Origin: a virus
Taxonomy: Duplodnaviria; Heunggongvirae; Uroviricota; Caudoviricetes
IMG/VR virus record: IMGVR_UViG_2711768076_000014
Location: 1-22,684 of that record
Reading direction: 5' to 3' (one strand)
DNA: 22,684 bases
Shown: positions 989-22,684 of the stretch, one piece after another
Layout of the letters: each line of letters opens with the position of its first letter
Position numbering within the stretch: the stretch's first letter is position 1
Translations under genes and position numbers: made by a program
Notes under the pieces: model-generated
Databases searched by the model: none
Seen by the model: the letters and a program-made list of their open reading frames with translations, nothing else
Told to the model about the DNA's origin: nothing

Positions 989-1639
989 TTAATTTGATTT
1001 ATTCGCATCCATCAACGCTTTTAACTCCTCCGGCGTAAACGGTGGTTTGCGTCGGTGCAGCATCGCATGGCAATTAGGGCACACAGGAAGCAAATCATTA
1101 ACTGGATCCAGCTGGTAATCCTCTTTAATGGCTGAAAGCGGCACCAGGTGATGCACATGGATAAAGCCTTCAGCGATATCACCATAGATCTTCACCAGAT
1201 CAACGCCGCATACGTTGCATTGGCATCCATGATGTTCGACCGCTTTATCTCGGGCCTTTTTATCGCGTTCATAGCGGTTTACTGTCACCTTTATCGCCGC
1301 ACCTTCAACGTAGGTCCCCTGCGACGGCAGCTCATCCGGGAACAGAACGTCGGCTATGGGAGCCGCAGCGGCTTTATCCTGATGAATATGAAATCCCTGC
1401 TCTATGAGTAGCTTGACACATTTAGATTTTATTCCGCCGGTGAAATCCGCAGGGGTAAATTGCGTCCCCGTCATCAATGTCGCTGCGATGCCAGCAATCG
1501 CCTTCGAGGGATAACGTCGGCCATGATATTCAATTTCATACAACCGTGCAGGCTGGAACTGATGAGTTTCTCCCGCATCCCATAAATGAATAGCTTCGAT
1601 GATATACCGCCGCGGAAGATGATCGGGGAGTTTATTCAT
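989..1639 (-). CDS. McrA-like HNH endonuclease with an unassigned N-terminal domain (putative modification-dependent restriction enzyme), 216 aa
   Basis: C-terminal CQCNVCG...HVHHLVPLS...PVCPNCHAMLH resembles the EcoKMcrA HNH/zinc-finger core as I recall it; SD-like AAGGA upstream of ATG; stop lies 7 bp from the nanS stop (convergent). Confidence 0.6.
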   Translation of the reverse strand: MNKLPDHLPRRYIIEAIHLWDAGETHQFQPARLYEIEYHGRRYPSKAIAGIAATLMTGTQFTPADFTGGIKSKCVKLLIEQGFHIHQDKAAAAPIADVLFPDELPSQGTYVEGAAIKVTVNRYERDKKARDKAVEHHGCQCNVCGVDLVKIYGDIAEGFIHVHHLVPLSAIKEDYQLDPVNDLLPVCPNCHAMLHRRKPPFTPEELKALMDANKSN

Positions 1640-1718
1640 AGAGAATGTCCTTATACGTTCTCAGAACAAGCAGCAAAAAAACAAATGAGATCAAAGTAAT
1701 ATATCTTCACTTGCAGGC

Positions 1719-1952
1719 TTGAACAGCAGAAAATTTGCGAGCATGATCGCAATTATTTCACTGCCAGGGATATCAATGGCTTCCAGTAAATCGCTACAGC
1801 AGGCAATTGCCAATATAAAAATCTGGCATAAGGGTGAACAGCGCGCACCGCATAAACCATTGTTATTGCTATACGTATTAGCGGGATACCTGAATGGACA
1901 TCCACGCCTTTTCGATTATTGTAGTGGAACAGTCTACGAGGATGCAGTTTGA
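1719..1952 (+). CDS. Hypothetical small protein (77 aa), possible gene remnant
   Basis: ORF only, in the 640-bp gap between the HNH gene start and abiEii stop; no clear SD; coding status uncertain. Confidence 0.15.
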   Translation: MNSRKFASMIAIISLPGISMASSKSLQQAIANIKIWHKGEQRAPHKPLLLLYVLAGYLNGHPRLFDYCSGTVYEDAV

Positions 1953-2017
1953 AGTGAGTAAGTAAAGGTTGCTGGAAACGATCAATGCCGCCATACAATG
2001 ATATTTGAGGATCAACA

Positions 2018-2203
2018 ATGAGTAATAAAAACTACGAAAGTCACCGCAAAGCGATTGTTAGTAAAGGTATACCACCCGCTCTATTAAATAGGCTCACCAA
2101 TTCGGATGTTCAGGTGATCAATACCTTCTTAACACGAGTGAGCAAACTGGAACTATCTCAACAAGAGAAAGACTGGATCATAAAAATCATCTCTATGGTT
2201 TAG
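2018..2203 (+). CDS. Hypothetical small protein (61 aa)
   Basis: ORF preceded by GAGGA about 6 nt before the ATG; no recognisable motif. Confidence 0.25.
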   Translation: MSNKNYESHRKAIVSKGIPPALLNRLTNSDVQVINTFLTRVSKLELSQQEKDWIIKIISMV

Positions 2204-2282
2204 AGAATTTCAGAATTTCAAGTAAAGACAATGCTGCATATCAAGCATTCAGGATGGCTAGCGCTAAGCTCCTAAACCTGGA

Positions 2283-3188
2283 TTAAGCCTCATCCCATGT
2301 GATCTTTCGCTCTCCATACACCATTGGCGAAACAAACTGCTGATAGCGCATCTCGTAGAGAGGATTGTTCGCCAACTCATCCAGTCCCATTTTTAGCTCA
2401 TCAACTGGAGACGCGCAAAACTGCGGGTACTGGTTGCCGTAACGCTGAATGTCCTGCTCAATAGTTTGTTGAACAAAATCAACGAGCAGACTCATATCAA
2501 CATGACTCGTCTCAACAATACAGTTTGTATCGTAGATATGACGTACCAGCGATGCATCATCAAATCGCTCAACATCTCGCACAACTGCCGCAGTACGACG
2601 TAACATCGCCACCAGCTTTTCTGCCTGTGTGCTAATGATAGTTGCGCATGGAAACGCTGAAACAATAGCCGCTTTTCCCGTGATCCCTGTTACCAGTGAA
2701 TGAATATCCCGTAATTCAGAAGGCTCCAGTAACTTCGCTTCCATCAATTCCAGCCGGATAAAAGGACGCAAACAAGGTGCCTGCACTACTCGCTGTGGAT
2801 AACGAACAGGTATGTCATTATAACGATATTCATCCCGCGTCACTTTTGGGTAATCATCATCAAAATTGAACACACCCGATGAAGCTATTGCACTGGAAAC
2901 TGCCTGAACAATTTCTTTACGGGTATTTTTTCGCTGAGTGCGGGAAAGTGCCTGAAATGCATCCTTAGGCACCAGTTTGATATCCACATCTTCCGACATG
3001 CGATTAAGTGCGACACCTGATTTTGCCAGAGCGGTTCCTCCGGCAAACACCAATTGATGAGTATCGAACACCAGAGGTTTAAGCAATTGCAAAAGCTCAA
3101 CGATATAGTGATCTTTTTCCACAATTGCGACAGACTCAATACCAAGCGCGTCAGCCACTTCAGAAAAAAGAGTGGTTAAATCATCCAT
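2283..3188 (-). CDS. AbiEii/AbiGii-family nucleotidyltransferase toxin (type IV TA / abortive infection), 301 aa
   Basis: N-terminal FAGGTALAKSG...RMSEDVDI fits the GS...D.D nucleotidyltransferase motif of the AbiEii/DUF1814 family; start overlaps the upstream wHTH gene stop by 8 bp. Confidence 0.7.
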   Translation of the reverse strand: MDDLTTLFSEVADALGIESVAIVEKDHYIVELLQLLKPLVFDTHQLVFAGGTALAKSGVALNRMSEDVDIKLVPKDAFQALSRTQRKNTRKEIVQAVSSAIASSGVFNFDDDYPKVTRDEYRYNDIPVRYPQRVVQAPCLRPFIRLELMEAKLLEPSELRDIHSLVTGITGKAAIVSAFPCATIISTQAEKLVAMLRRTAAVVRDVERFDDASLVRHIYDTNCIVETSHVDMSLLVDFVQQTIEQDIQRYGNQYPQFCASPVDELKMGLDELANNPLYEMRYQQFVSPMVYGERKITWDEA

Positions 3189-3576
3189 TTAATCTGCTGT
3201 TCCCTACAGATAATACGCGTTTAAAACGCCGGGGGGTTTTTATCTCGGGTGAAGCTGGGATCTGCGTAGAAGTACCGCTATTGTATGCCTGCGTTGCGCC
3301 AGCAAAACGATAGCGTACTTTCAGGCGTTCCAGCGTTTCGACAATCACCGCTGAAGAGCCTCCGGGAGCCGCTGGCATTACCTTGCCTGTAATACCGTTC
3401 CGCCGTGCTTTGGTATACACGCCATAACCAACCTTCAACAGTTGCCCTTCCCTGACAAGCTCGCGCAATACCCGACCAACCTGATCGTAGCCTGCAATAT
3501 CTTTAAAGTCGTCACGAGTGAATACGTAACGTTTAGAACGTTTCAGTCGTGACTGAATGCGTGCTTTTATCGTCAT
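3181..3576 (-). CDS. AbiEi-like antitoxin / winged-HTH transcriptional regulator (about 131 aa from the ATG with SD)
   Basis: MTIKARIQSRLKRSKRYVFTRDDF...VGRVLRELVREGQLLKVGYGVY resembles the AbiEi N-terminal wHTH; GGAGG sits 5 nt before the ATG ending at 3576; the six-frame ORF extends to 3645 but the upstream in-frame ATGs lack an SD. Confidence 0.6.
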   Translation of the reverse strand: MTIKARIQSRLKRSKRYVFTRDDFKDIAGYDQVGRVLRELVREGQLLKVGYGVYTKARRNGITGKVMPAAPGGSSAVIVETLERLKVRYRFAGATQAYNSGTSTQIPASPEIKTPRRFKRVLSVGNSRLNG

Positions 3577-3603
3577 ATTCGCCTCCAGAGTCATTGCATA
3601 AAG

Positions 3604-3646
3604 AGTAGCAAAAATACGACATTTTAGATAGCAAACATACGACATT
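3604..3646 (-). promoter_or_regulatory. Two tandem 20-bp direct repeats (period 23 bp) upstream of abiEi; putative operator/promoter
   Basis: Plus-strand agtagcaaaaatacgacatt (3604-3623) and gatagcaaacatacgacatt (3627-3646) match at 18 of 20 positions, immediately upstream of the SD-supported abiEi start. Confidence 0.4.
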
Positions 3647-4479
3647 CATTTTGCTGATAACGCTGACGGAAAGTGCTTCGCCACGATATCATTCATCTTA
3701 TCCACCAGATCCAGTCGCTTGAAAGTGATATGCCCACTGCCTTTCTGGTAATAGCGGATGACAAATAAATCGTCATCAAATACCTGTTCATGCGGGTGAG
3801 CACTAACGAAGTCCATAAACCGAATCGCAACATCATGCCGGTTATCGGGAATGGCCTTCCCATCCAGCAGATAGAACATACGCTCCAGATCGGCAAGCTG
3901 ATCTCGCCGCCAGCCCCAGTTCAGGCTGTAGCCCCATCTGTCATGCTTCACCAGATTGTTAACGATAATCTTCTTACCGAAATAACAGGGATTATTGGTT
4001 TTGTAGTCCCAGCTCAATCCCTTAAATACATTGATAACCCCACGTTCGAAAACGTCCTGCTTATTGTGGTGAAGTTGTTCAAAGGTACTCAGAATGTTGG
4101 CTTCGCTAATCGCCGGGAGATCGCCCTCTTCCAGGTTCTTTGCCCACTGACTGCGGGCTTCGGCATCCATCAGAGTCAACATCCCAGACTTCAGCATGAG
4201 ATCGCGCCAGATGCTGCGATCGATATTTCGGGTGATCACCGGCATCGCTTTGTCGGTTGGCTGCATCAGCCAGCAGTCAAAGGCATATCCATTTCGCATT
4301 GCCCAGGTTCCAGCCACATCACCGCCAATACTGGATGTCAGGCTGGAGATATCATCAAGTTTTTGGATTAACGCCGCTATCTGGTTCAGTGCACTATCAC
4401 GTCCTGTGACGATACGCTCGATACTGGTCGAGCAAATTAGTTCGTTATGATCGGTTAAGACTTCAGCTTCTGTCTGCAT
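3646..4479 (-). CDS. Hypothetical protein, 277 aa, no family assignable
   Basis: Long ORF filling the space between the hsdM divergent promoter region and the abiE operator; no catalytic motif recognised. Confidence 0.6.
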   Translation of the reverse strand: MQTEAEVLTDHNELICSTSIERIVTGRDSALNQIAALIQKLDDISSLTSSIGGDVAGTWAMRNGYAFDCWLMQPTDKAMPVITRNIDRSIWRDLMLKSGMLTLMDAEARSQWAKNLEEGDLPAISEANILSTFEQLHHNKQDVFERGVINVFKGLSWDYKTNNPCYFGKKIIVNNLVKHDRWGYSLNWGWRRDQLADLERMFYLLDGKAIPDNRHDVAIRFMDFVSAHPHEQVFDDDLFVIRYYQKGSGHITFKRLDLVDKMNDIVAKHFPSALSAK

Positions 4480-4784
4480 AATCTTTCATCCGTAAAAAAT
4501 ACACTCGCCGTTAGTAGCAGACGAATTATCCACTGGTGAAAGATTGGGTAAATAATGAGATTGAAAATCGGGAAGGTGACTCGCAATAAATTATCTGATC
4601 ACCTACGGATGGGCGATGGGCATATAAAGTAGCCTCCTGACTCAAGCGGTGAATGCTGAGTAAGATGCACTAACAATCTGGTACTGAATCCCCTCCTCAC
4701 CGTCATACAAATCTGAAAAACCAAACAACTTCCGGTAAAATCCCGGCAAAAGCCGACGTTAAAAACACATTCAAAGGATAAAAA

Positions 4785-6337
4785 ATGACCAGTCTTCAGC
4801 AGCGCGCGGAGCTTCATCGCCAAATCTGGCAAATTGCTAACGATGTCAGAGGTTCGGTCGATGGATGGGATTTTAAGCAATACGTTCTGGGCGCGCTTTT
4901 CTACCGTTTTATCAGCGAAAATTTTTCCAGCTATATTGAAGCCGGTGATGACAGTATCTGTTATGCGAAACTGGATGACAGCGTAATTACTGATGACATT
5001 AAAGACGATGCCATCAAAACTAAAGGCTACTTCATCTACCCCAGTCAGCTTTTCTGCAACGTAGCTGCGAAAGCAAATACTAATGACAGACTGAATGCAG
5101 ATTTAAACAGCATCTTCGTTGCTATCGAAAGTTCTGCTTACGGTTATCCTTCAGAAGCTGACATCAAAGGTTTGTTTGCTGATTTCGATACCACCAGTAA
5201 CCGCCTGGGTAACACCGTTAAAGATAAAAATGCCCGCCTGGCTGCGGTTCTGAAAGGGGTTGAAGGGTTAAAACTTGGTGACTTCAACGAACATCAGATT
5301 GACCTGTTCGGTGATGCCTATGAGTTCCTGATTTCTAACTATGCGGCAAATGCCGGTAAGTCAGGCGGTGAGTTCTTTACACCGCAGCACGTCTCCAAGC
5401 TGATTGCACAACTGGCTATGCACGGGCAGACCCACGTTAACAAAATCTACGACCCGGCAGCGGGTTCCGGCTCACTGTTGTTGCAGGCGAAAAAACAGTT
5501 TGATAACCATATCATCGAAGAAGGCTTTTTCGGTCAGGAAATCAACCATACGACCTATAACCTGGCGCGTATGAACATGTTTTTGCACAACATCAACTAC
5601 GACAAGTTTGATATCAAGCTTGGCAATACGCTGACTGAACCGCACTTCAGAGATGAAAAACCGTTTGATGCCATCGTTTCTAACCCGCCGTATTCGGTGA
5701 AATGGATTGGCAGCGATGACCCGACGCTGATTAACGATGAGCGTTTTGCCCCGGCTGGCGTTCTGGCCCCCAAATCCAAAGCTGACTTTGCGTTTGTATT
5801 ACATGCGCTGAACTATCTTTCGGCCAAAGGTCGTGCTGCGATTGTCTGCTTCCCGGGTATTTTTTACCGTGGCGGCGCAGAGCAGAAAATCCGTCAGTAT
5901 CTGGTCGATAATAACTATGTCGAAACCGTAATTTCACTGGCTCCGAACCTGTTCTTTGGCACCACCATTGCCGTAAACATTCTGGTTCTGTCCAAACATA
6001 AAACGGATACCAACGTTCAGTTTATTGATGCCAGCGAACTGTTCAAAAAAGAGACCAACAACAATATCCTGACCGATGCCCATATCGAACAAATTATGCA
6101 GGTATTCACCAGCAAGGAAGATGTTGCTCATCTGGCAAAATCTGTCGCGTTTGAAGCCGTTGTAGCGAATGACTATAACCTGTCGGTGAGCAGCTATGTA
6201 GAATCGAAAGATAACCGCGAAATTATCGATATTGCTGAGCTGAATGCAGAACTGAAAACTACGGTCAGCAAAATCGACCAGTTGCGTAAAGATATCGACT
6301 CAATTGTGGCAGAGATTGAAGGTGACGAGGTGCAGGG

Positions 6338-6341
<4 letters not shown>
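4785..6341 (+). CDS. hsdM: Type I restriction-modification N6-adenine DNA methyltransferase subunit HsdM, 518 aa
   Basis: SAM-binding [10 protein letters not shown] and catalytic NPPY ([12 protein letters not shown]); N-terminal HsdM-type domain; 4-bp ATGA overlap with hsdS. Confidence 0.9.
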
Positions 6342-7543
<1,202 letters not shown>

Positions 7544-7665
7544 TTGACCATTGCTACCGATCGGGCCACCTTAACACCCGGTCAGTATATAGACTATTTT
7601 TTTACGCGCCGGAAGTCACTCTTAACGCCCTTCCGGCTCTTGCCAGGCGGCACAAAGGATGCGCT

Positions 7666-10600
7666 ATGACTCATCAAACACACACCATTGCTGAATCCAA
7701 TAACTTTATCGTCCTTGATAAGTACATCAAAGCTGAGCAAACAAGCGACAGCTACCAGAGCGAATCGGACCTGGAACGTGAACTGATTCAGGACCTGCGG
7801 AATCAGGGTTATGAATTTATTTCGGTAAAATCACAGTCAGCGATGCAGGCCAACGTTCGGGAACAGCTTCAGAGCCTCAATGGTGTGGTGTTTAATGACA
7901 GCGAGTGGCGGCGTTTCACGGAGCAGTATCTGGATAACCCGAGCGATGGCATTCTGGATAAGACCCGTAAAATCCATATCGACTATATTTGCGACTTTAT
8001 TTTTGATGACGAGCGTCTTGAGAACATCTATTTGATAGATAAAAAGAATCTCATGCGCAATAAGGTGCAGATTATCCAGCAGTTTGAGCAGGCGGGTTCT
8101 CATGCTAACCGTTATGACGTCACGATCCTGGTTAATGGCTTACCACTGGTACAAATCGAACTGAAAAAGCGCGGCGTGGCGATTCGTGAGGCTTTCAACC
8201 AGATACATCGTTACAGTAAAGAGAGTTTTAACAGCGAAAATTCCCTGTTTAAGTATCTGCAACTGTTTGTCATTTCTAACGGCACCGATACCCGTTACTT
8301 TGCCAACACCACAAAGCGCGATAAAAACAGTTTTGACTTCACCATGAACTGGGCGAAATCAGACAACACGCTGATTAAAGACCTCAAAGATTTTACCGCT
8401 ACCTTTTTCCAGAAACATACTCTGCTTAATGTTCTGGTGAACTACAGCGTGTTCGATATTAGCCAGACGCTACTGGTGATGCGACCGTACCAGATTGCCG
8501 CTACCGAACGGATCTTATGGAAAATCAACAGTTCCTATAAAGCGAAAAACTGGTCTAACCCCGAAAGCGGTGGCTTTATCTGGCACACTACCGGTTCCGG
8601 TAAAACACTGACCAGCTTTAAAGCCGCGCGCCTGGCAACAGAACTGGACTTTATTGATAAAGTCTTCTTTGTGGTCGACAGGAAAGACCTCGATTACCAG
8701 ACGATGAAGGAATATCAGCGTTTTTCCCCAGACAGCGTCAACGGCTCGGAAAATACCGCAGGCCTTAAACGAAATCTGGATAAGGACGATAACAAAATTA
8801 TCGTCACCACTATTCAGAAACTTAATAACCTGATGAAAGCAGAAAGCGACCTGCCTGTATACAATCAGCAAGTGGTGTTTATATTTGATGAATGTCACCG
8901 CAGCCAGTTTGGAGAAGCGCAGAAAAATCTGAAGAAGAAATTCAAACGCTATTATCAGTTTGGTTTTACCGGCACACCTATTTTCCCGGAAAACGCTTTA
9001 GGCTCAGAAACGACCGCCAGCGTATTTGGTCGTGAATTGCATTCATATGTGATTACCGATGCGATTCGTGATGAAAAAGTGCTCAAATTCAAGGTGGACT
9101 ATAACGATGTGCGGCCCCAGTTTAAATCTTTAGAGACAGAAACCGACGAGAAAAAACTGAGTGCGGCTGAAAATCAGCAGGCGTTTCTTCATCCCATGCG
9201 TATACAGGAAATTACGCAATATATTCTGAATAACTTCCGCCAGAAGACCCACCGTACTTTCCCAGGTTCCAAAGGCTTTAATGCCATGCTGGCAGTGAGT
9301 AGCGTGGATGCCGCGAAAGCCTATTACGCGACGTTTAAACGGTTACAAGAGGAAGCAGCTAATAAATCGGCTACCTATAAACCGCTGCGTGTTGCGACAA
9401 TCTTCTCCTTTGCCGCCAATGAAGAACAAAATGCCATTGGTGAAATTTCCGATGAAACTTTTGATACCAGCGCAATGGACAGCAGTGCTAAAGAGTTTCT
9501 TGACGCTGCAATTCGTGAGTATAACAGCTATTTTAAAACTAACTTCAGCACCGACAGTAACGGTTTTCAGAACTACTATCGTGATTTAGCCCAACGGGTT
9601 AAAAATCAGGATATCGATCTGTTAATTGTCGTTGGGATGTTTTTAACCGGCTTCGACGCTCCAACATTGAACACGCTATTCGTCGATAAAAACTTGCGTT
9701 TTCACGGCCTGATGCAGGCATTCTCCCGCACCAACCGCATTTATAACGCCACTAAAACCTTCGGTAACATCGTCACTTTCCGGGATCTGGAACGCTCAAC
9801 CATTGATGCCATAACGCTGTTTGGTGATAAAAATACCAAAAATGTAGTGTTAGAAAAGAGTTATGCAGAGTATATGGAAGGCTTTACTGATGCTGCCACT
9901 GGTGAAGCTAAACGCGGCTTTATGGCAGTAGTTTCAGAACTGGAACAACGGTTCCCTGACCCTGCCAGTATTGAAAGTGAAAAAGAGAAGAAAGACTTCG
10001 TTAAACTGTTTGGTGAATACCTGCGTGCCGAGAACATCCTGCAAAACTATGATGAATTTGCCACGCTGAAAGCCCTGCAACAAATCGATCTTAGCGATCC
10101 TGTTGCGGTAGAAAAATTCAAAGAAGAACATTATGTGGATGATGAAAAGTTCGCTGAATTACAAACGATTCGTCTCCCTGCTGAACGCAAGATTCAGGAT
10201 TATCGTTCTGCCTATAACGATATTCGTGACTGGCAGCGCCGCGAGAAAGAGGCTGGCAAAAAAGAAAAGTTAACTACTGACTGGGATGACGTGGTTTTTG
10301 AAATCGATTTGCTGAAGTCTCAGGAAATAAACCTGGATTATATCCTTGGACTGATTTTCGAACACAACAGACAAAACAAAGGTAAGGGCGAAATGACCGA
10401 AGAGGTCAAGCGCTTAATTCGTTCGAGCCTTGGGAACCGTGCCAAAGAAGGTCTGGTGGTCGATTTTATTCAACAAACAAACCTGGATGATTTGCCGGAT
10501 AAAGCCAGCATCATTGACGCGTTTTTTACCTTTGCTCAACGCGAACAGCAACGTGAAGCAGAAGCATTGATCAAAGAAGAAAATCTCAATGAAGAGGCGG

Positions 10601-10782
10601 CGAAACGCTATATTCGCACGTCTTTAAAACGCGAATACGCCACCGAAAATGGCACGGAATTAAACGAGACATTGCCAAAACTCAGTCCGTTAAATCCGCA
10701 ATATAAGACGAAAAAACAGACGGTTTTCCAGAAGATCGTCGCGTTTATTGAGAAGTTTAAAGGTGTAGGCGGGCAGATATAA
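7666..10782 (+). CDS. hsdR: Type I R-M restriction subunit HsdR (helicase-nuclease), 1038 aa, EcoR124-like
   Basis: Endonuclease-type D...ELK block ([20 protein letters not shown]), Walker A TGSGKT, DECH box ([10 protein letters not shown]); length and N-terminus [20 protein letters not shown] match my recollection of EcoR124I HsdR; separated from hsdS by 122 bp, suggesting its own promoter. Confidence 0.9.
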
Positions 10783-11022: not shown

Positions 11023-11262
11023 ATAGAATAACTATATAACTCATTGAACATGATGATAAAAATTTTATAGCTTATGACTTGTGCCCCATTTTGTGCCCCC
11101 AACAAAATCTTATTGTTGCTAACTAGCACAATAAATGAATTAGCAAGATAGAGTTGCCTAGTTAGGTTCCGTCTTACAGAGCCTAACCAGAACAACCAAA
11201 CCTCTGAACCAACCTTGCGCAAGCTAGATAAAGTCATGCTGATTTATTAGGACAACAAGCTA

Positions 11263-12210
11263 TTAAATTTCATATTTTGAAATTTCGCTGATTACATCAT
11301 CCCCATATTTCTTAATCATGGAGGCAAAGAATTTATGTTCAATAAATTTCGCATAGCCTAATTCTCCTTTAAGGGTTAGAATTTCTTTCTCAGATAAAAC
11401 CCCACACACATAATAATGTATTTTACTTCTTAAAAGACGCTTTCTATCACGACCTAAAGACAAATAACCATCAGTCGTAATAGTTACACCAGTTACATGT
11501 CTATTAAACTTCCTTGAGGTAAAAACTGTTTTCTCATGGTTTATTTTAATATTCCTAAGATTTACTACGTTAAGAACTTCCCTTACTAACTTAGGAACAT
11601 CAAATAAAGCTCCTTTGACTTTGGTGCTAAACGTAAGATCATCAGCATACCTTGAGTAGGTAATACCCAAATCCTTGCATCTTTTCGATATTTCCTCATC
11701 GAAGAAATACATTACTGTATTTGAAATAATGGGAGAAGAAGGTGCTCCAACACTTAGGCGTAACGGGCTATTTCTTCTTAACTTCCAGAAGAAAAGATTT
11801 TTAAGAACAAAGATATCAGTATCAGTTAGTTCAACGCCATAATCTTTTAAGACAGATAAAAGATTATGGGGTTTGATACTCATAAAAAAGTTTTTAAAAT
11901 CCATTTTAAGCAAATAATCATTATTACAATGCATTAACGCATTAGATCTAATACTTTTATCGGCTTCATAAGCGAAAGCATTTTCATGAACTTTCAAATT
12001 AGCCAACATATGATTGATTACTACCTTCTGTAAGGCTTTAACTTGCCTAGCTGGTTGTGCAATTAATCTATATCCATTACCATTTCTTTTGGCGATAGGA
12101 TAAATTTTATATCTGCGTGGAATAGTAACAATATACCTTTTAGCCTCTTCTTCGCTAAGAAAAAGACCTTTTGAAATATAACTTAGCAACTCCATTCTAA
12201 GCCCCTCCAC
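11263..12210 (-). CDS. Retron-type reverse transcriptase, 315 aa
   Basis: RT blocks YRLIAQPARQVKALQKVV, LKMDFKNFFMSI, SVGAPSSPIISN, YSRYADDLTFS (YADD catalytic box) and VTGVTIT (retron VTG signature); size as for Ec73/Ec86-class retron RTs. Confidence 0.85.
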   Translation of the reverse strand: MEGLRMELLSYISKGLFLSEEEAKRYIVTIPRRYKIYPIAKRNGNGYRLIAQPARQVKALQKVVINHMLANLKVHENAFAYEADKSIRSNALMHCNNDYLLKMDFKNFFMSIKPHNLLSVLKDYGVELTDTDIFVLKNLFFWKLRRNSPLRLSVGAPSSPIISNTVMYFFDEEISKRCKDLGITYSRYADDLTFSTKVKGALFDVPKLVREVLNVVNLRNIKINHEKTVFTSRKFNRHVTGVTITTDGYLSLGRDRKRLLRSKIHYYVCGVLSEKEILTLKGELGYAKFIEHKFFASMIKKYGDDVISEISKYEI

Positions 12211-13183
12211 GCACGATATTGATTTGATTTAGAGCATTTTTCCTTTTTTTTGCAGTCTCGTCCATATCTTTAGCATCCATACTTAAGTAAGATTGTCGGA
12301 TTGCAACCTTAATATTCATAGAATCCTTTATTTTACCACTAGCACTGATACCAAATTTAAGTTTACTCTCTCTATGCCCTCGGGAATAGAAGTAGTCTGT
12401 ACCACTGTAAGATAATGATGAGGTTAATTTCATCTTTTCAAGCAAATAAAGTAAACGAGTTATTATTTTTTGTGGCACATCTATATCCATACAGTATAGT
12501 GCCCACTCTATTTCGCTTTTCTTGATTGGTTCTGATAAAAGGATTATTTCGTAAATCAATATAGCTAGGTGCCCAGTATTTTCAGGGTTATATCGCTCCG
12601 TTTTTTTTACACGTTTTAATCTAGAATGAATATCATGGTAGATAAGCTCAACCTCATCATATTTCATACGATCCGATTTTGGCCATGGATAAACTGATAC
12701 TGAGGCCTCATCTATTTTTTTAAGATACTCCAAAGGGCCTAAATATATAAAAGAAGATCTAGCAGGAATATTTTTTCGTTCATTTCCCTCAATCTCCTCA
12801 AATGGTGCGACTACATGCAATTTTTGAGCTAGAGACTTCCTATTAACAAATAATCCAAGCTCAACTAACGAACCTGCACTTTCTAAACAGATAACAACTA
12901 ATGTTGAAATATTTGCAATATCATCTTCAAAGCTCATTAGATCTGAATATGCCCCCTCTCTGAAGTAGTCATGGAAGTTCTCAGCTAAAATAAGAGAATC
13001 TGACAATTCAGGTTTGTGGCCTGCTACATAAGTAAATATGTGGTCTCGTACACTCATTGGAGTGGAATTTATCGGCCCACCACAAACAAAAATAATAGGA
13101 GGCATGAACTGAACAGTGAAATTTGAATATTTCAAATCTCCAAACTGCTCTTGTAATGCATTCATATATGCAGAATCACTCAC
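12197..13183 (-). CDS. Retron accessory/effector protein (type II-like, possibly nucleoside deoxyribosyltransferase-like plus DNA-binding), 328 aa
   Basis: Lies between the msd hairpin and the RT gene and overlaps the RT start by 14 bp; AT-rich like the RT gene; family assigned by context only. Start is GTG at 13183 or ATG at 13165. Confidence 0.6.
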   Translation of the reverse strand: MSDSAYMNALQEQFGDLKYSNFTVQFMPPIIFVCGGPINSTPMSVRDHIFTYVAGHKPELSDSLILAENFHDYFREGAYSDLMSFEDDIANISTLVVICLESAGSLVELGLFVNRKSLAQKLHVVAPFEEIEGNERKNIPARSSFIYLGPLEYLKKIDEASVSVYPWPKSDRMKYDEVELIYHDIHSRLKRVKKTERYNPENTGHLAILIYEIILLSEPIKKSEIEWALYCMDIDVPQKIITRLLYLLEKMKLTSSLSYSGTDYFYSRGHRESKLKFGISASGKIKDSMNIKVAIRQSYLSMDAKDMDETAKKRKNALNQINIVRGGA

Positions 13184-13204
13184 CCTTGTGACCCCCTACT
13201 CCAA

Positions 13205-13480
13205 AAGAAAAGGTGGCTAACCAGCCACCTTCGACCCCTTTACCTAAAGGATGCGCTTTAGACTTTCAGCAAGATCCTGAATGGAACGCAGTGGCATGAA
13301 GGATCTTGCTGAAAGTGCTAAAGCGCAACCCTAAATGTCCACAATAAATTAGTGTCTGGCGAAACGCCCGACAAGGATAAACCTGTTATCCCGCGCGTAA
13401 AGGTAGGGTTAGGATAGCAAAAGATGCGAGATTTTCAATAAGTAAGCGTACTGGCTGCCAGCAACCACCTAAACCATTGA
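13205..13480 (-). ncRNA. Retron msr-msd non-coding RNA (approximate bounds)
   Basis: Upstream of the effector gene: short stem-loops (ggataa/ttatcc 13374-13390; ggcg/cgcc about 13354-13364; aacccta/tagggtt) typical of msr, plus a 27-bp near-perfect hairpin at 13254..13325 typical of msd; a1/a2 repeats not found with confidence. Confidence 0.5.
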
Positions 13481-13810
13481 CATTTAAACAAAAATAAATC
13501 TAACAATTGAAAGCAATACCTTATTGAATACAGCATTCTTATATCTCTCTTGATATCGCAACATCACAATTATCACCGTTAGTGCGGGCAGCCCCGCACG
13601 CCTGCCCGCTTCGCTTAACAGACTGGTTTTCATGCACCTCATTAATCGTCTCAGAAGCCAGCACACAAGGGTTTTCTCGTCAAAAATGGTGCATAAGACT
13701 CATGCGTTTTCATGCGCCATAGACATGCACTCATGCGCTCTCATGTCAGCCAGGAAAAGGGGGTAAAAAATCCCGGTACTGGACCGGGATTACGTGGGCG
13801 TTCTTTCTAA

Positions 13811-14083
13811 TCAGACAGGAATCTGCTGACGGCTTGACAGTTTTGACGCGGAGCCATAGCGATTGAGCGTTTTCTGTTGTTTTTCCGGGGATTGTGCTTT
13901 GTCTGATAGCTGTTCATTGCGCCGGGGTTTCATGATTATCTTATCCACACTCTCCAGTGCCGTAAATGTGCAGGAACATTCCAGATTCTGGCACTGATAC
14001 CACGAGCGTTTAACTGACGGAGCTTCATAGGCTGCTGTTCTGGCGTGTGCAACTGTACCGCATTCCGGACATTTAAGTGCCAT
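13811..14083 (-). CDS. Ogr/Delta-family zinc-finger late-gene transcriptional activator, about 90 aa
   Basis: MALKCPECG...YQCQNLECSCTF matches the Cys4 Ogr/Delta pattern; AGGAG sits 8 nt before the ATG at 14083 (the six-frame ORF extends to a GTG at 14092). Confidence 0.8.
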   Translation of the reverse strand: MALKCPECGTVAHARTAAYEAPSVKRSWYQCQNLECSCTFTALESVDKIIMKPRRNEQLSDKAQSPEKQQKTLNRYGSASKLSSRQQIPV

Positions 14084-14088
14084 TAATA

Positions 14089-14640
14089 TCACTCCTGTAT
14101 ATCGTTAATGTCATTCAGGCGTTGCTGAAAACGCAGATGTTGTGCCGGGGTGTAAGAACCCTGGCAATCACGAATCATCCCGGGGTCAGGCATCAAACCG
14201 GATTCATCCAGGATCTCACGATAATCCCCGGCAATTTCAGGCGGTGTTATTGCCAGCTGGCGAACCAGAGCACTGCGTAATATACGGGACGCAACGTCAA
14301 CCCCTCCGCGCCCCTTCAGGAACGGAGCCAGTGCAGATGTCAGGGCTGCCCCATTCGCCTGCATAAAATTGCTGAGAGCGGCTTCTGTGCAGGCCTCCAT
14401 CAGTAAATGCTGCGAGTAAATGCATTCGCGCGCAGCACAGTTAATTTGCCATTTCAGCACATCCAGACGTTCCCGCAGTAATTCGAGCTGTCGGGCATAA
14501 TCTGCTGGTTTTTCTGTGGCAGCGAGGAGAGATGTTATCTGTTGTTCAACGGCTTTTCGGCTCTCATTATGTCCGGCCCACAGAATACGGGCATTCCGAA
14601 AACTGGTAAGTGCCTGGTCAGGCGTGCCTCGGGCCGTCAT
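14089..14640 (-). CDS. psu: Psu-like polarity-suppression / capsid-decoration protein, 183 aa
   Basis: Blocks LKWQINCAAR, FMQANGAALTSALAPFL and YTPAQHL resemble my recollection of P4 Psu (190 aa); ATGA overlap with the upstream gene. Confidence 0.55.
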   Translation of the reverse strand: MTARGTPDQALTSFRNARILWAGHNESRKAVEQQITSLLAATEKPADYARQLELLRERLDVLKWQINCAARECIYSQHLLMEACTEAALSNFMQANGAALTSALAPFLKGRGGVDVASRILRSALVRQLAITPPEIAGDYREILDESGLMPDPGMIRDCQGSYTPAQHLRFQQRLNDINDIQE

Positions 14641-21421: not shown

Positions 21422-22684
21422 TTATTTTCCATGCATACGCGCAAAATCATATGGTGTGACAGATCCATTCTTATTAGCATCAATATAATCAGCCCACCAC
21501 TGCAGCATTAATCTTCTTTCTTCAAGATATTCGGAAGTATGCATATATGAACCTTTCACATTTTTTCGTTCAACGTGGCTTAACTGTCTTTCAATGGCAT
21601 CATCATTCCATAGTTTCGACTCACTTAGCGCACCACGCGCCATAGTTCTAAACCCATGACCACATACTTCAGTTTTCGTATCATATCCCATTACACGTAA
21701 GGCGTTATTTACTGTATTTTCACTCATTACTTTTTTAGGATCATGATCGCTGGGAAATATAACCTCACCTTTACCACTCAAGGCATGTAAACGTTTAAAA
21801 ATATCAAATGCTTGTTTGCTAAGCGGAACAATATGTTCAGTTTTCATCTTCATCCCACGCTCAGAGTGTTTTACGCCGGGAATAGGCTTACGAATTCCGG
21901 GTATTGTCCACTCGCTTCGTTCAAAGTTAACCTCACTCCAGCGAGCAAAACGCATCTCACTTGAACGTATAAATGTGAGTAGCGTTAATTCAACGGCAAG
22001 CCGTGTCATTAGTCGCCCTTTATAGCGTGATAGTCTTTCAAGAAGCTCAGGGATTCTTTTTGGGGGTAGTGCTGGGTGGTGGGTTGCTTTAACGCTTAAA
22101 AGCGCTCCAGCCATATCGCATGCAGGATTTGATTCAAGGAGGTCATTCTGCACACCAAAACGCATAATTGCGGTTACGCGCTGCATCAGTCGCTGCGCGA
22201 CATCATGTTTACCCGCCGTATCGACAGCTTTGATTGGATTGAGAAGCTGGCTGGTTCTCAACGTTCTGGCATCGATTTGACCTATCGAGGGGAAAATATA
22301 CTGCTCAAGTGTCAGCAGAACACGACGGCTATGATCTTCGCTCCAAGTAAGGTTACTTGCGTGCCATTGCCTTGCGATAGTTTCAAATAAATATGCCCCC
22401 TCAATTTCAGCTTGTGCCCCCTTTTGCTCAGCTTTGGGGTCAATACCCTGAGACAACAATTTCTTTGCTGCATCGCGCTTACCCCGCGCTTCAGCCAAAG
22501 TGACCGTCGGGTATACACCAAAAGCGAGTCGATCTTCCTTTTTGTCAGAGGGGCGGCGATATTTCATGCGCCAGTACTTAGAACCTTTAGGGGAGACCTC
22601 AAGATACAAACCGCCTCCATCAGCCATTTTATAAGCTTTCTCTTTCGGCTTTGCGGTCTCTATCTGGCGAGCGTTGAGTTTCAT
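21422..22684 (-). CDS. int: P4-type tyrosine integrase, 420 aa
   Basis: N-terminal MKLNARQIETAKPKEKAYKMADGGGLYLEVSPKGSKYWRMKYR is the P4-integrase arm-binding signature; C-terminal catalytic region with HGFRTMARG and a downstream Tyr; start codon at the window edge, tRNA presumably just beyond. Confidence 0.9.
   Translation of the reverse strand: MKLNARQIETAKPKEKAYKMADGGGLYLEVSPKGSKYWRMKYRRPSDKKEDRLAFGVYPTVTLAEARGKRDAAKKLLSQGIDPKAEQKGAQAEIEGAYLFETIARQWHASNLTWSEDHSRRVLLTLEQYIFPSIGQIDARTLRTSQLLNPIKAVDTAGKHDVAQRLMQRVTAIMRFGVQNDLLESNPACDMAGALLSVKATHHPALPPKRIPELLERLSRYKGRLMTRLAVELTLLTFIRSSEMRFARWSEVNFERSEWTIPGIRKPIPGVKHSERGMKMKTEHIVPLSKQAFDIFKRLHALSGKGEVIFPSDHDPKKVMSENTVNNALRVMGYDTKTEVCGHGFRTMARGALSESKLWNDDAIERQLSHVERKNVKGSYMHTSEYLEERRLMLQWWADYIDANKNGSVTPYDFARMHGK

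Follow-up and report, generated by a model that had tools for sequence, protein, structure and literature searches.

The locus and its genes

The DNA analysed here (the window) is the whole stretch of 22,684 nucleotides of the IMG/VR virus record IMGVR_UViG_2711768076_000014. An intergenic region of the window contains a long hairpin, and the two genes that lie 3' of it on the minus strand, with overlapping open reading frames, encode an NDT-like effector (RcaT) and a retron reverse transcriptase (RT). A preliminary description of the sequence had placed the hairpin directly upstream of a retron operon, which agrees with the effector and RT genes found next to it. On the other side of the hairpin are genes of a P4-like satellite, including those for an Ogr/Delta zinc finger protein, Psu, a Sid-like protein and a primase (Toprim and DUF927). 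The main genes are as follows.

989-1639, minus strand, HNH protein, left of the retron
2283-3645, minus strand, AbiEii/AbiEi pair, left of the retron
3646-4479, minus strand, DUF4942 protein, left of the retron
4785-10782, plus strand, type I restriction-modification (R-M) genes hsdM/hsdS/hsdR, left of the retron
11263-12210, minus strand, retron reverse transcriptase (Pfam RVT_1, 97 bits; PADLOC RT_II-A, 401 bits; 310 aa from ATG 12195)
12197-13183, minus strand, effector gene rcaT, NDT-like (PADLOC NDT_II-A, 291 bits; 328 aa from GTG 13183)
13811-14092, minus strand, ogr/delta-like gene, with the hairpin in the intergenic region downstream
21422-22684, strand not given, integrase, among the P4-like satellite genes

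The RT carries the motifs NAxxH (as NALMH) at residue 85, YADD at residue 183 and VTG at residue 234. Its closest counterparts of solved structure (PDB 9n69, 9l7p and 9e8z; E 4e-84 to 3e-65) belong to type I-A, Ec78/Ec83-like retrons, in which the effector is an ATPase plus an HNH nuclease, whereas an NDT-like RcaT is encoded here. The effector, encoded between the non-coding RNA and the RT gene, has its PADLOC NDT_II-A match over residues 9-321 and also resembles, though weakly, the Ec86 effector structure 7v9x_C (E 2e-6). Judged by these protein matches, the retron belongs to type II-A of the Mestre classification, as implemented in PADLOC. RefSeq names the two products "retron St85 family effector protein" and "retron St85 family RNA-directed DNA polymerase", and its annotation contains identical copies of the genes in 154-156 complete E. 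coli genomes; no annotation covers the hairpin in those RefSeq genomes. The start of rcaT is ambiguous, with GTG 13183 (328 aa) used by RefSeq and by the Eco9 cloning primer, and ATG 13165 (322 aa) by the published phosphosite numbering.

With regard to the neighbourhood, a cluster of defence genes (989-10782) adjoins the retron. The left flank with type I R-M and AbiE was found beside this retron in 0 complete E. coli genomes of the collection, the best of which covers 58% of the window, so that the junction between the defence cluster and the retron is unusual. In the phages collection, neither the retron RNA nor the neighbouring satellite genes had a match at the DNA level. Between the promoter region of the retron and the ogr/delta-like gene, at 13618-13745, there are four direct repeats of ~17 nt, ACTCATGCGTTTTCATG-like and spaced by 31-45 nt, which may serve the satellite in regulation or packaging.

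A stable 27-bp hairpin

The arms of the hairpin are located at 13252-13278 and 13300-13327, and pair through 10 bp (13252-13261 with 13318-13327) followed by 17 bp (13262-13278 with 13300-13316), with a single bulged base at 13317 and an apical region of 21 nt at 13279-13299. Past one mismatch, the stem is extended by two G-C pairs (13249-13250 with 13329-13330). The preliminary description of a near-perfect 27-bp hairpin with one bulge thus stands in its two arm sequences, its number of base pairs and its bulge; its coordinates have to be moved 2 nt outward on each arm, and the whole element measures 76 nt instead of 72. Within the DNA stem there is a perfect GATC duplex, formed by 13273-13276 and 13302-13305.

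The hairpin is real and far beyond chance. The DNA of the interval given in the preliminary description folds with -26.4 kcal/mol, against -7.3 +/- 2.0 kcal/mol for 200 dinucleotide-preserving shuffles (z = -9.5), and 0 of the 200 shuffles were as stable. Folding of the minus-strand transcript, which had been suggested as a check, bears out the hairpin as well, with a z of -6.4 for the 257-nt RNA over the intergenic region.

Anatomy of the non-coding RNA

The minus strand of this region contains the parts expected of a retron msr-msd RNA, in the order in which they would be transcribed.

13411-13438, minus strand, promoter-like site (-35 TTGAAA at 13438-13433, a 16-nt spacer and a TG-extended -10 TATCCT at 13416-13411)
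13397-13403, minus strand, inverted repeat a1, CCUUUAC, complementary to a2
13396, minus strand, candidate branching (priming) G, immediately 3' of a1; in the Rfam msr model it aligns to the G within a conserved UUAGCG
13338-13404, minus strand, msr (Rfam RF00170) with two stem-loops at 13392-13374 and 13373-13353, taken from the centroid fold
13248-13331, minus strand, msd hairpin (folding, match to Rfam RF02058 STnc400, covariation)
13237-13243, minus strand, inverted repeat a2, GUAAAGG, complementary to a1
13199-13232, minus strand, terminator-like element between the non-coding RNA and the effector gene, consisting of a 10-bp hairpin GAAGGUGGCU/AGCCACCUUU at 13232-13209 and a following UCUUUU

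The promoter-like site matches the consensus at 9 of 12 positions and, with one site in the region against ~1.1 expected from the consensus scan, is weak when taken alone. Its position agrees with the Rfam msr match, which starts at 13404, and with a branching G at approximately RNA position 12, as in retron-Vmi1 (PMC11701397), and the transcript would start at ~13403-13407. The preliminary description had proposed locating the branching G and the a1/a2 repeats by alignment to known retrons, and candidates for all three could be placed, the G through the Rfam msr model and the repeats through their complementarity. The G at 13396 is invariant among the relatives described below and is the likely branching residue. 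Relatives with a1 ending in UUUA-G have an a2 with AG-UAAA, and those with UUUAC-G, as here, have GG-UAAA; this matching of a1 and a2 types keeps a G opposite the candidate priming G. The a1/a2 helix has only 7 bp in the window. A longer pairing that includes the upstream CCUAACCCUA was discarded, as this segment is a poor pairing partner for the a2 side and the transcript probably starts downstream of it. The long outer helix between AUCUUUUGC and GUAGGGGGU in the minimum free energy fold was also set aside, as it consists mostly of G-U pairs and is missing in the centroid. The second msr stem-loop, GUCGGGCGUUUCGCCAGAC, is kept in all relatives, and the literature on msr recognition describes the msr stem-loops as the binding site of the RT (PMC6868368).

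The terminator-like hairpin is located 16 nt downstream of the msd hairpin, after a2 and within the STnc400 model match. An equivalent hairpin with a T-run and a different sequence is found just 3' of a2 in 14 of 15 relatives (among L122-L139). This suggests that the non-coding RNA is produced as a transcript of its own, and that the effector and the RT depend on read-through or on another promoter for their expression.

The same element bears on another interpretation, in which the 27-bp hairpin is an intrinsic terminator or attenuator of an upstream satellite transcript or of a plus-strand transcript and does not serve as a template for the RT. The hairpin is strong, contains G-C pairs and is intergenic, downstream of the ogr/delta-like gene on the same strand, all of which would suit a terminator. 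However, the 27-bp stem is followed by a run of U or T on neither strand and is not among the hits of the terminator scan, and its length, together with the 21-nt apex, is atypical for terminators; a separate canonical terminator-like hairpin with its U-run is present at 13232-13209. Moreover, the long hairpin is enclosed by a1 and a2, which covary, and in relatives from unrelated contexts it is always linked to a retron RT. A role as terminator, which the preliminary description had named as a finding that would overturn its own proposal, is therefore extremely improbable.

Conservation of structure in relatives

A pattern built from the conserved msr stem-loop GTCGGGCNTTTNGCCAGACNCTAA identified 19 loci that share the msr core, 2 viral and 17 metagenomic. 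The covariation alignment (A1) comprised 14 distinct complete copies, all of which present the same layout, with a long msd hairpin of lineage-specific stem sequence. The flanks GGGUUGCG...CGCxUCCUxUAG are conserved in these 14 copies and enclose a hairpin of 25-32 bp. In A1, 90.6% of the cells form a standard pair, as opposed to 38-47% when the partners are slid by 1-3 columns; the same displacement gives 8-16 pairs with changes on both sides against 22 observed, and a covariation score of 0.065-0.12 against 0.427. None of 500 column shuffles reached any of the observed measures. The upper msd stem covaries in 12 of its 12 pairs. The a1/a2 helix is 96% paired in the 14 relatives, with changes on both sides in three of eight pairs, as exemplified by CCUUUAC/GUAAAGG, CUCUUUA/UAAAGAG and GUUCUUUAC/GUAAAGAAC. 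The msr stem-loop is invariant because the alignment was selected via the msr pattern, so that the msr stem is uninformative in this comparison. The non-coding RNA is also found at 99% identity or more in 156 complete E. coli genomes, whose copies are clonal and thus of no use for covariation. A contig scan of genomes with the degenerate pattern GTCGGGCNNNNNGCCAGAC returned only chance matches in GC-rich genomes.

In every case where the contig is long enough, the RNA is followed by an RT homologue (41-75% identity), and a homologue of RcaT (31-90% identity) is most often located between the two. In four loci (L124, L126, L128 and L133) with the same msr/msd architecture, the RT directly follows the non-coding RNA and there is no RcaT homologue; a single lineage of non-coding RNA and RT thus seems to have been paired with more than one effector module. 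In three loci (L123, L134 and L133), the msd hairpin is truncated or almost deleted, with the msr, a2, the terminator and the RT homologue kept and, in L123 and L134, the RcaT homologue too. These may be decayed elements or variants with a short msDNA.

Two features of the msd vary among the relatives. The GATC duplex is also perfect in L122, L125 and L128, and in the two closest relatives (L139 and L130) GATC stands opposite GAGC, so that it is present in one arm only and the site is broken. The motif TCGTNCCTC (RNA sense) occurs at the apex in 7 of 15 relatives (L122, L124, L126, L129, L135, L137 and L138), the stems of which are unrelated; the apical loop of the window (13279-13299) contains only a degenerate version, UUCAUGCCAC.

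Relationship to the STnc400 RNA

No match was obtained with Rfam at gathering thresholds anywhere in the window. With E-value reporting, two adjoining sub-threshold matches appear on the minus strand. The Retron msr RNA model (RF00170) matches 13404-13338 over the full model with 42.2 bits (E 4e-6), short of its gathering score of 52. The STnc400 model (RF02058) matches 13333-13197 over its full length with 55.4 bits (E 6e-10), short of its gathering score of 80, and spans the hairpin and the downstream terminator-like stem. The scores below gathering reflect the narrow seed alignments of both models rather than biology; in the case of STnc400, the lower score arises because the stem sequence differs from that of Sen2 and the apex is ~12 nt longer.

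In Salmonella, STnc400 was described as an sRNA that is encoded between STM3844 and STM3845, in the orientation of STM3845, with bands of ~190 nt and ~55 nt (PMC2515195). STM3845 and STM3846 are the effector and the RT of retron-Sen2/St85 (10.1101/2020.06.22.160168), and the position of STnc400 thus identifies it as the msr-msd transcript of Sen2. The hairpin of the window is a structural homologue of STnc400, and a terminator after a2 agrees with the ~190-nt band. Retron-Sen2/St85 of Salmonella Typhimurium shares with the window the short a1/a2 helix, the branching G after UUUA(C), the two msr stem-loops, the long msd hairpin, whose base carries GGGUUGCG...CGCxUCC, a GATC duplex in the DNA stem, and the terminator followed by rcaT and the RT. 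The two differ in the stem sequence and in the apex, which is longer in the window element, as stated above.

Two observations could also be read in favour of a stand-alone regulatory RNA: the Salmonella homologue was initially listed as an expressed sRNA, with two bands, and the non-coding RNA is set apart as a discrete transcript by the conserved terminator. Similarly, the hairpin could be a DNA site of the satellite (cos or att); in either form of this explanation it would act mainly without reverse transcription. Against these readings, STnc400 maps exactly to the msr-msd locus of Sen2, and the stems are freely replaced with pairing kept, which fits a structural template or DNA hairpin and not a base-pairing seed. 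In addition, published genetics assign the antitoxin function to the msDNA and not to the RNA (10.1101/2020.06.22.160168). The element also travels with the RT and not with the satellite genes. Both forms of this explanation are very unlikely.

Identity of the retron

The most probable reading, to which we assign a probability of about 0.93, is that the hairpin is the msd of the msr-msd RNA of retron-Eco9, which belongs to type II-A and to the St85/Sen2 family and resides here in a P4-like satellite prophage. The proposal of a putative msd in the preliminary description is upheld by the downstream RT and effector genes, the Rfam msr and STnc400 matches, the covariation and the Eco9 primers. 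Retron-Eco9 was described in E. coli NILS-16 by Bobonis et al. (10.1101/2020.06.22.160168), with the same operon order as in the window. All seven published Eco9 primers from that work map to the window, each with no more than one substitution and in the order and orientation to be expected, at the following positions.

13432-13406, minus strand, msr start
13182-13153, minus strand, rcaT start (JB368/JB369 being the rcaT ends)
13077-13105, plus strand, msd reverse, "+107 nt of rcaT"
12192-12209, plus strand, rcaT end (JB368/JB369 being the rcaT ends)
12195-12165, minus strand, RT start (JB391/JB392 being the RT ends)
11263-11302, plus strand, RT end (JB391/JB392 being the RT ends)
11217-11240, plus strand, RT downstream

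The primers were machine-read from a PDF, with single-letter dropouts, and the gaps in the matches are confined to letters lost within short repeats, as can be expected of such a reading. Furthermore, the four serines of RcaT-Eco9 that have been studied as phosphosites of the T7 kinase, Ser155, Ser181, Ser254 and Ser292 (PMC13645617), are all serines here when counted from ATG 13165. In the primer paper rcaT starts at a GTG six codons upstream of this ATG, so the two sources number RcaT differently. Based on these seven primers of 17-37 nt and four residue positions, rather than on a full-length alignment, identity with retron-Eco9 is very likely. Eco9 and Sen2 have been reported to share 49% identity in the RT, 43% in RcaT, 85% in the msr and 58% in the msd (10.1101/2020.06.22.160168). 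The hairpin sequence was not found in the supplements of PMC8989520 and PMC8563936, and a literature search for the RefSeq protein accessions gave no result.

The preliminary description had linked the hairpin to a different retron, Ec73 (Retron-Eco3), which is carried by the retronphage phiR73 and makes a 73-nt msDNA. The contexts are indeed similar, with a P4-like satellite (Ogr/Delta, Psu, primase, integrase), the same gene order of non-coding RNA, NDT-type effector and RT, a function in phage defence, and a hairpin length near 73 nt. Nevertheless, the flanks of the Ec73 msd, TATTTTAGCTATGCCCGTCGTT and ATCGACGTGCTCAAGTAGGTTT, known from published primers (PMC8563936 supplement), have no match in the window with up to three mismatches, and the terminal peptides of the Ec73 RT (RIYSLID... 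and ...NLHNKGE, also from published primers) are missing from all six frames of the window. The msd, msr and RT sequences of the two are unrelated at the level tested. RefSeq and PADLOC put the genes in the St85/II-A family, and the primers that match are those of Eco9. The agreement in size, between an element of ~72 nt and a msDNA of 73 nt, does not hold either: it is a coincidence, since the hairpin measures 76 nt and a msDNA also includes single-stranded tails outside the hairpin, for a predicted length of ~95 nt here. The Ec73 assignment is refuted at the level of sequence and can be given almost no weight.

Another known retron, retron-Vmi1/Vm85 of Vibrio mimicus (PMC11701397), resembles the window in its Sen2-like operon of msr-msd, ~320-aa effector and RT, in the branching G at RNA position 12, in the two RNA stem-loops and in an imperfection of the DNA stem. 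It differs in host, in insertion site (dusA) and in its msDNA, which was measured at 85 nt against the ~95 nt predicted here.

Predicted msDNA

By homology, transferred by way of the Rfam models, the retron-Eco9 element of the window would give rise to the following product.

13245-13339, plus strand, predicted primary msDNA of ~95 nt, ends possibly off by a few nucleotides

In Ec86, the first base of the msDNA is one past the G opposite the branching G, and the same rule would put the start at 13245. By analogy with the stop of the Ec86 msDNA, synthesis would end near 13339, just after a conserved UUAUUGxx. The msDNA of St85, to which this retron owes its name, is 85 nt long. In the Rfam alignment, the Sen2-type hairpin is ~12 nt shorter than the one of the window, which agrees with msDNAs of 85 nt there and ~95 nt here; the length of the homologous msDNAs and their shorter hairpins are consistent with a stop near 13339. 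Exo VII takes off four 5' nucleotides of the Sen2 msDNA and is also needed for msDNA production by Eco9 (10.1101/2020.06.22.160168), and the mature msDNA of the window is probably 4 nt shorter at its 5' end after cleavage by this enzyme.

Proposed mechanism and function

What was established for the window is its sequence anatomy, homology and covariation, together with a very likely identity with Eco9, and the biochemical steps that follow are taken from published work on Eco9 and Sen2. Minus-strand transcription would begin at ~13404, and pairing of a1 (13403-13397) with a2 (13243-13237) would bring the 2'-OH of the G at 13396 beside the 3' end of the msd. The RT (11263-12195) would bind the msr stem-loops, prime from this G and copy the msd towards the msr from 13245, with removal of the template RNA by RNase H. 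The product would be a single-stranded DNA of ~95 nt with the sequence of the plus strand, which would fold into the 27-bp hairpin and be trimmed at its 5' end by Exo VII. The complex of msDNA and RT would keep the RcaT toxin (12197-13183) inactive, and phage functions that modify or degrade the DNA hairpin would release RcaT and abort the infection.

In published work, Eco9 makes msDNA, needs RNase H and Exo VII, and acts as a toxin/antitoxin system, in which a block of msDNA synthesis, through mutation of the branching G or loss of rnhA or xseAB, releases the toxin (10.1101/2020.06.22.160168). The RT together with mature msDNA neutralises the RcaT toxin, according to the published studies of Eco9 and Sen2. 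Several triggers have been published: Dam methylates the GATC duplex in msDNA-Sen2, which is the known trigger site there; RecE, which acts on Eco9 as well, breaks down the msDNA; and RT-Eco1, another trigger of Eco9, acts in the case of Sen2 by sequestering the msDNA. Eco9 defends against T7, whose kinase counteracts it (PMC13645617).

Implications

The outcome of this analysis is a corrected annotation, with retron-Eco9 of the St85/Sen2 family in place of Ec73, in a P4-like satellite that has a type I R-M system and an AbiE pair as neighbours. The system is an already known and characterised retron, and its presence implies no new biology. Engineering or mapping of the msDNA can start directly from the coordinates given for a1, a2, the priming G, the msr, the msd and the terminator. 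At the level of the RNA families, the STnc400 sRNA family of Rfam corresponds to the msd-plus-terminator half of Sen2-type retron RNAs, and both RF02058 and RF00170 miss a well-characterised E. coli retron, Eco9, at their gathering thresholds.

It is also conceivable, if rather doubtful, that details of the msd in the St85/Sen2 family encode unrecognised regulation and sensing, through gating by the terminator, a site composed of the GATC duplex and TCGTNCCTC, and lineage-specific sensing of phages. If this were the case, the terminator after a2 would set the non-coding RNA apart as its own transcript, made in excess, with the effector and the RT gated by read-through. The GATC duplex and the semi-conserved TCGTNCCTC could then be a tuned site for phage Dam-type methylases or for RcaT, and the lineages of this family would differ in the phages that they sense.
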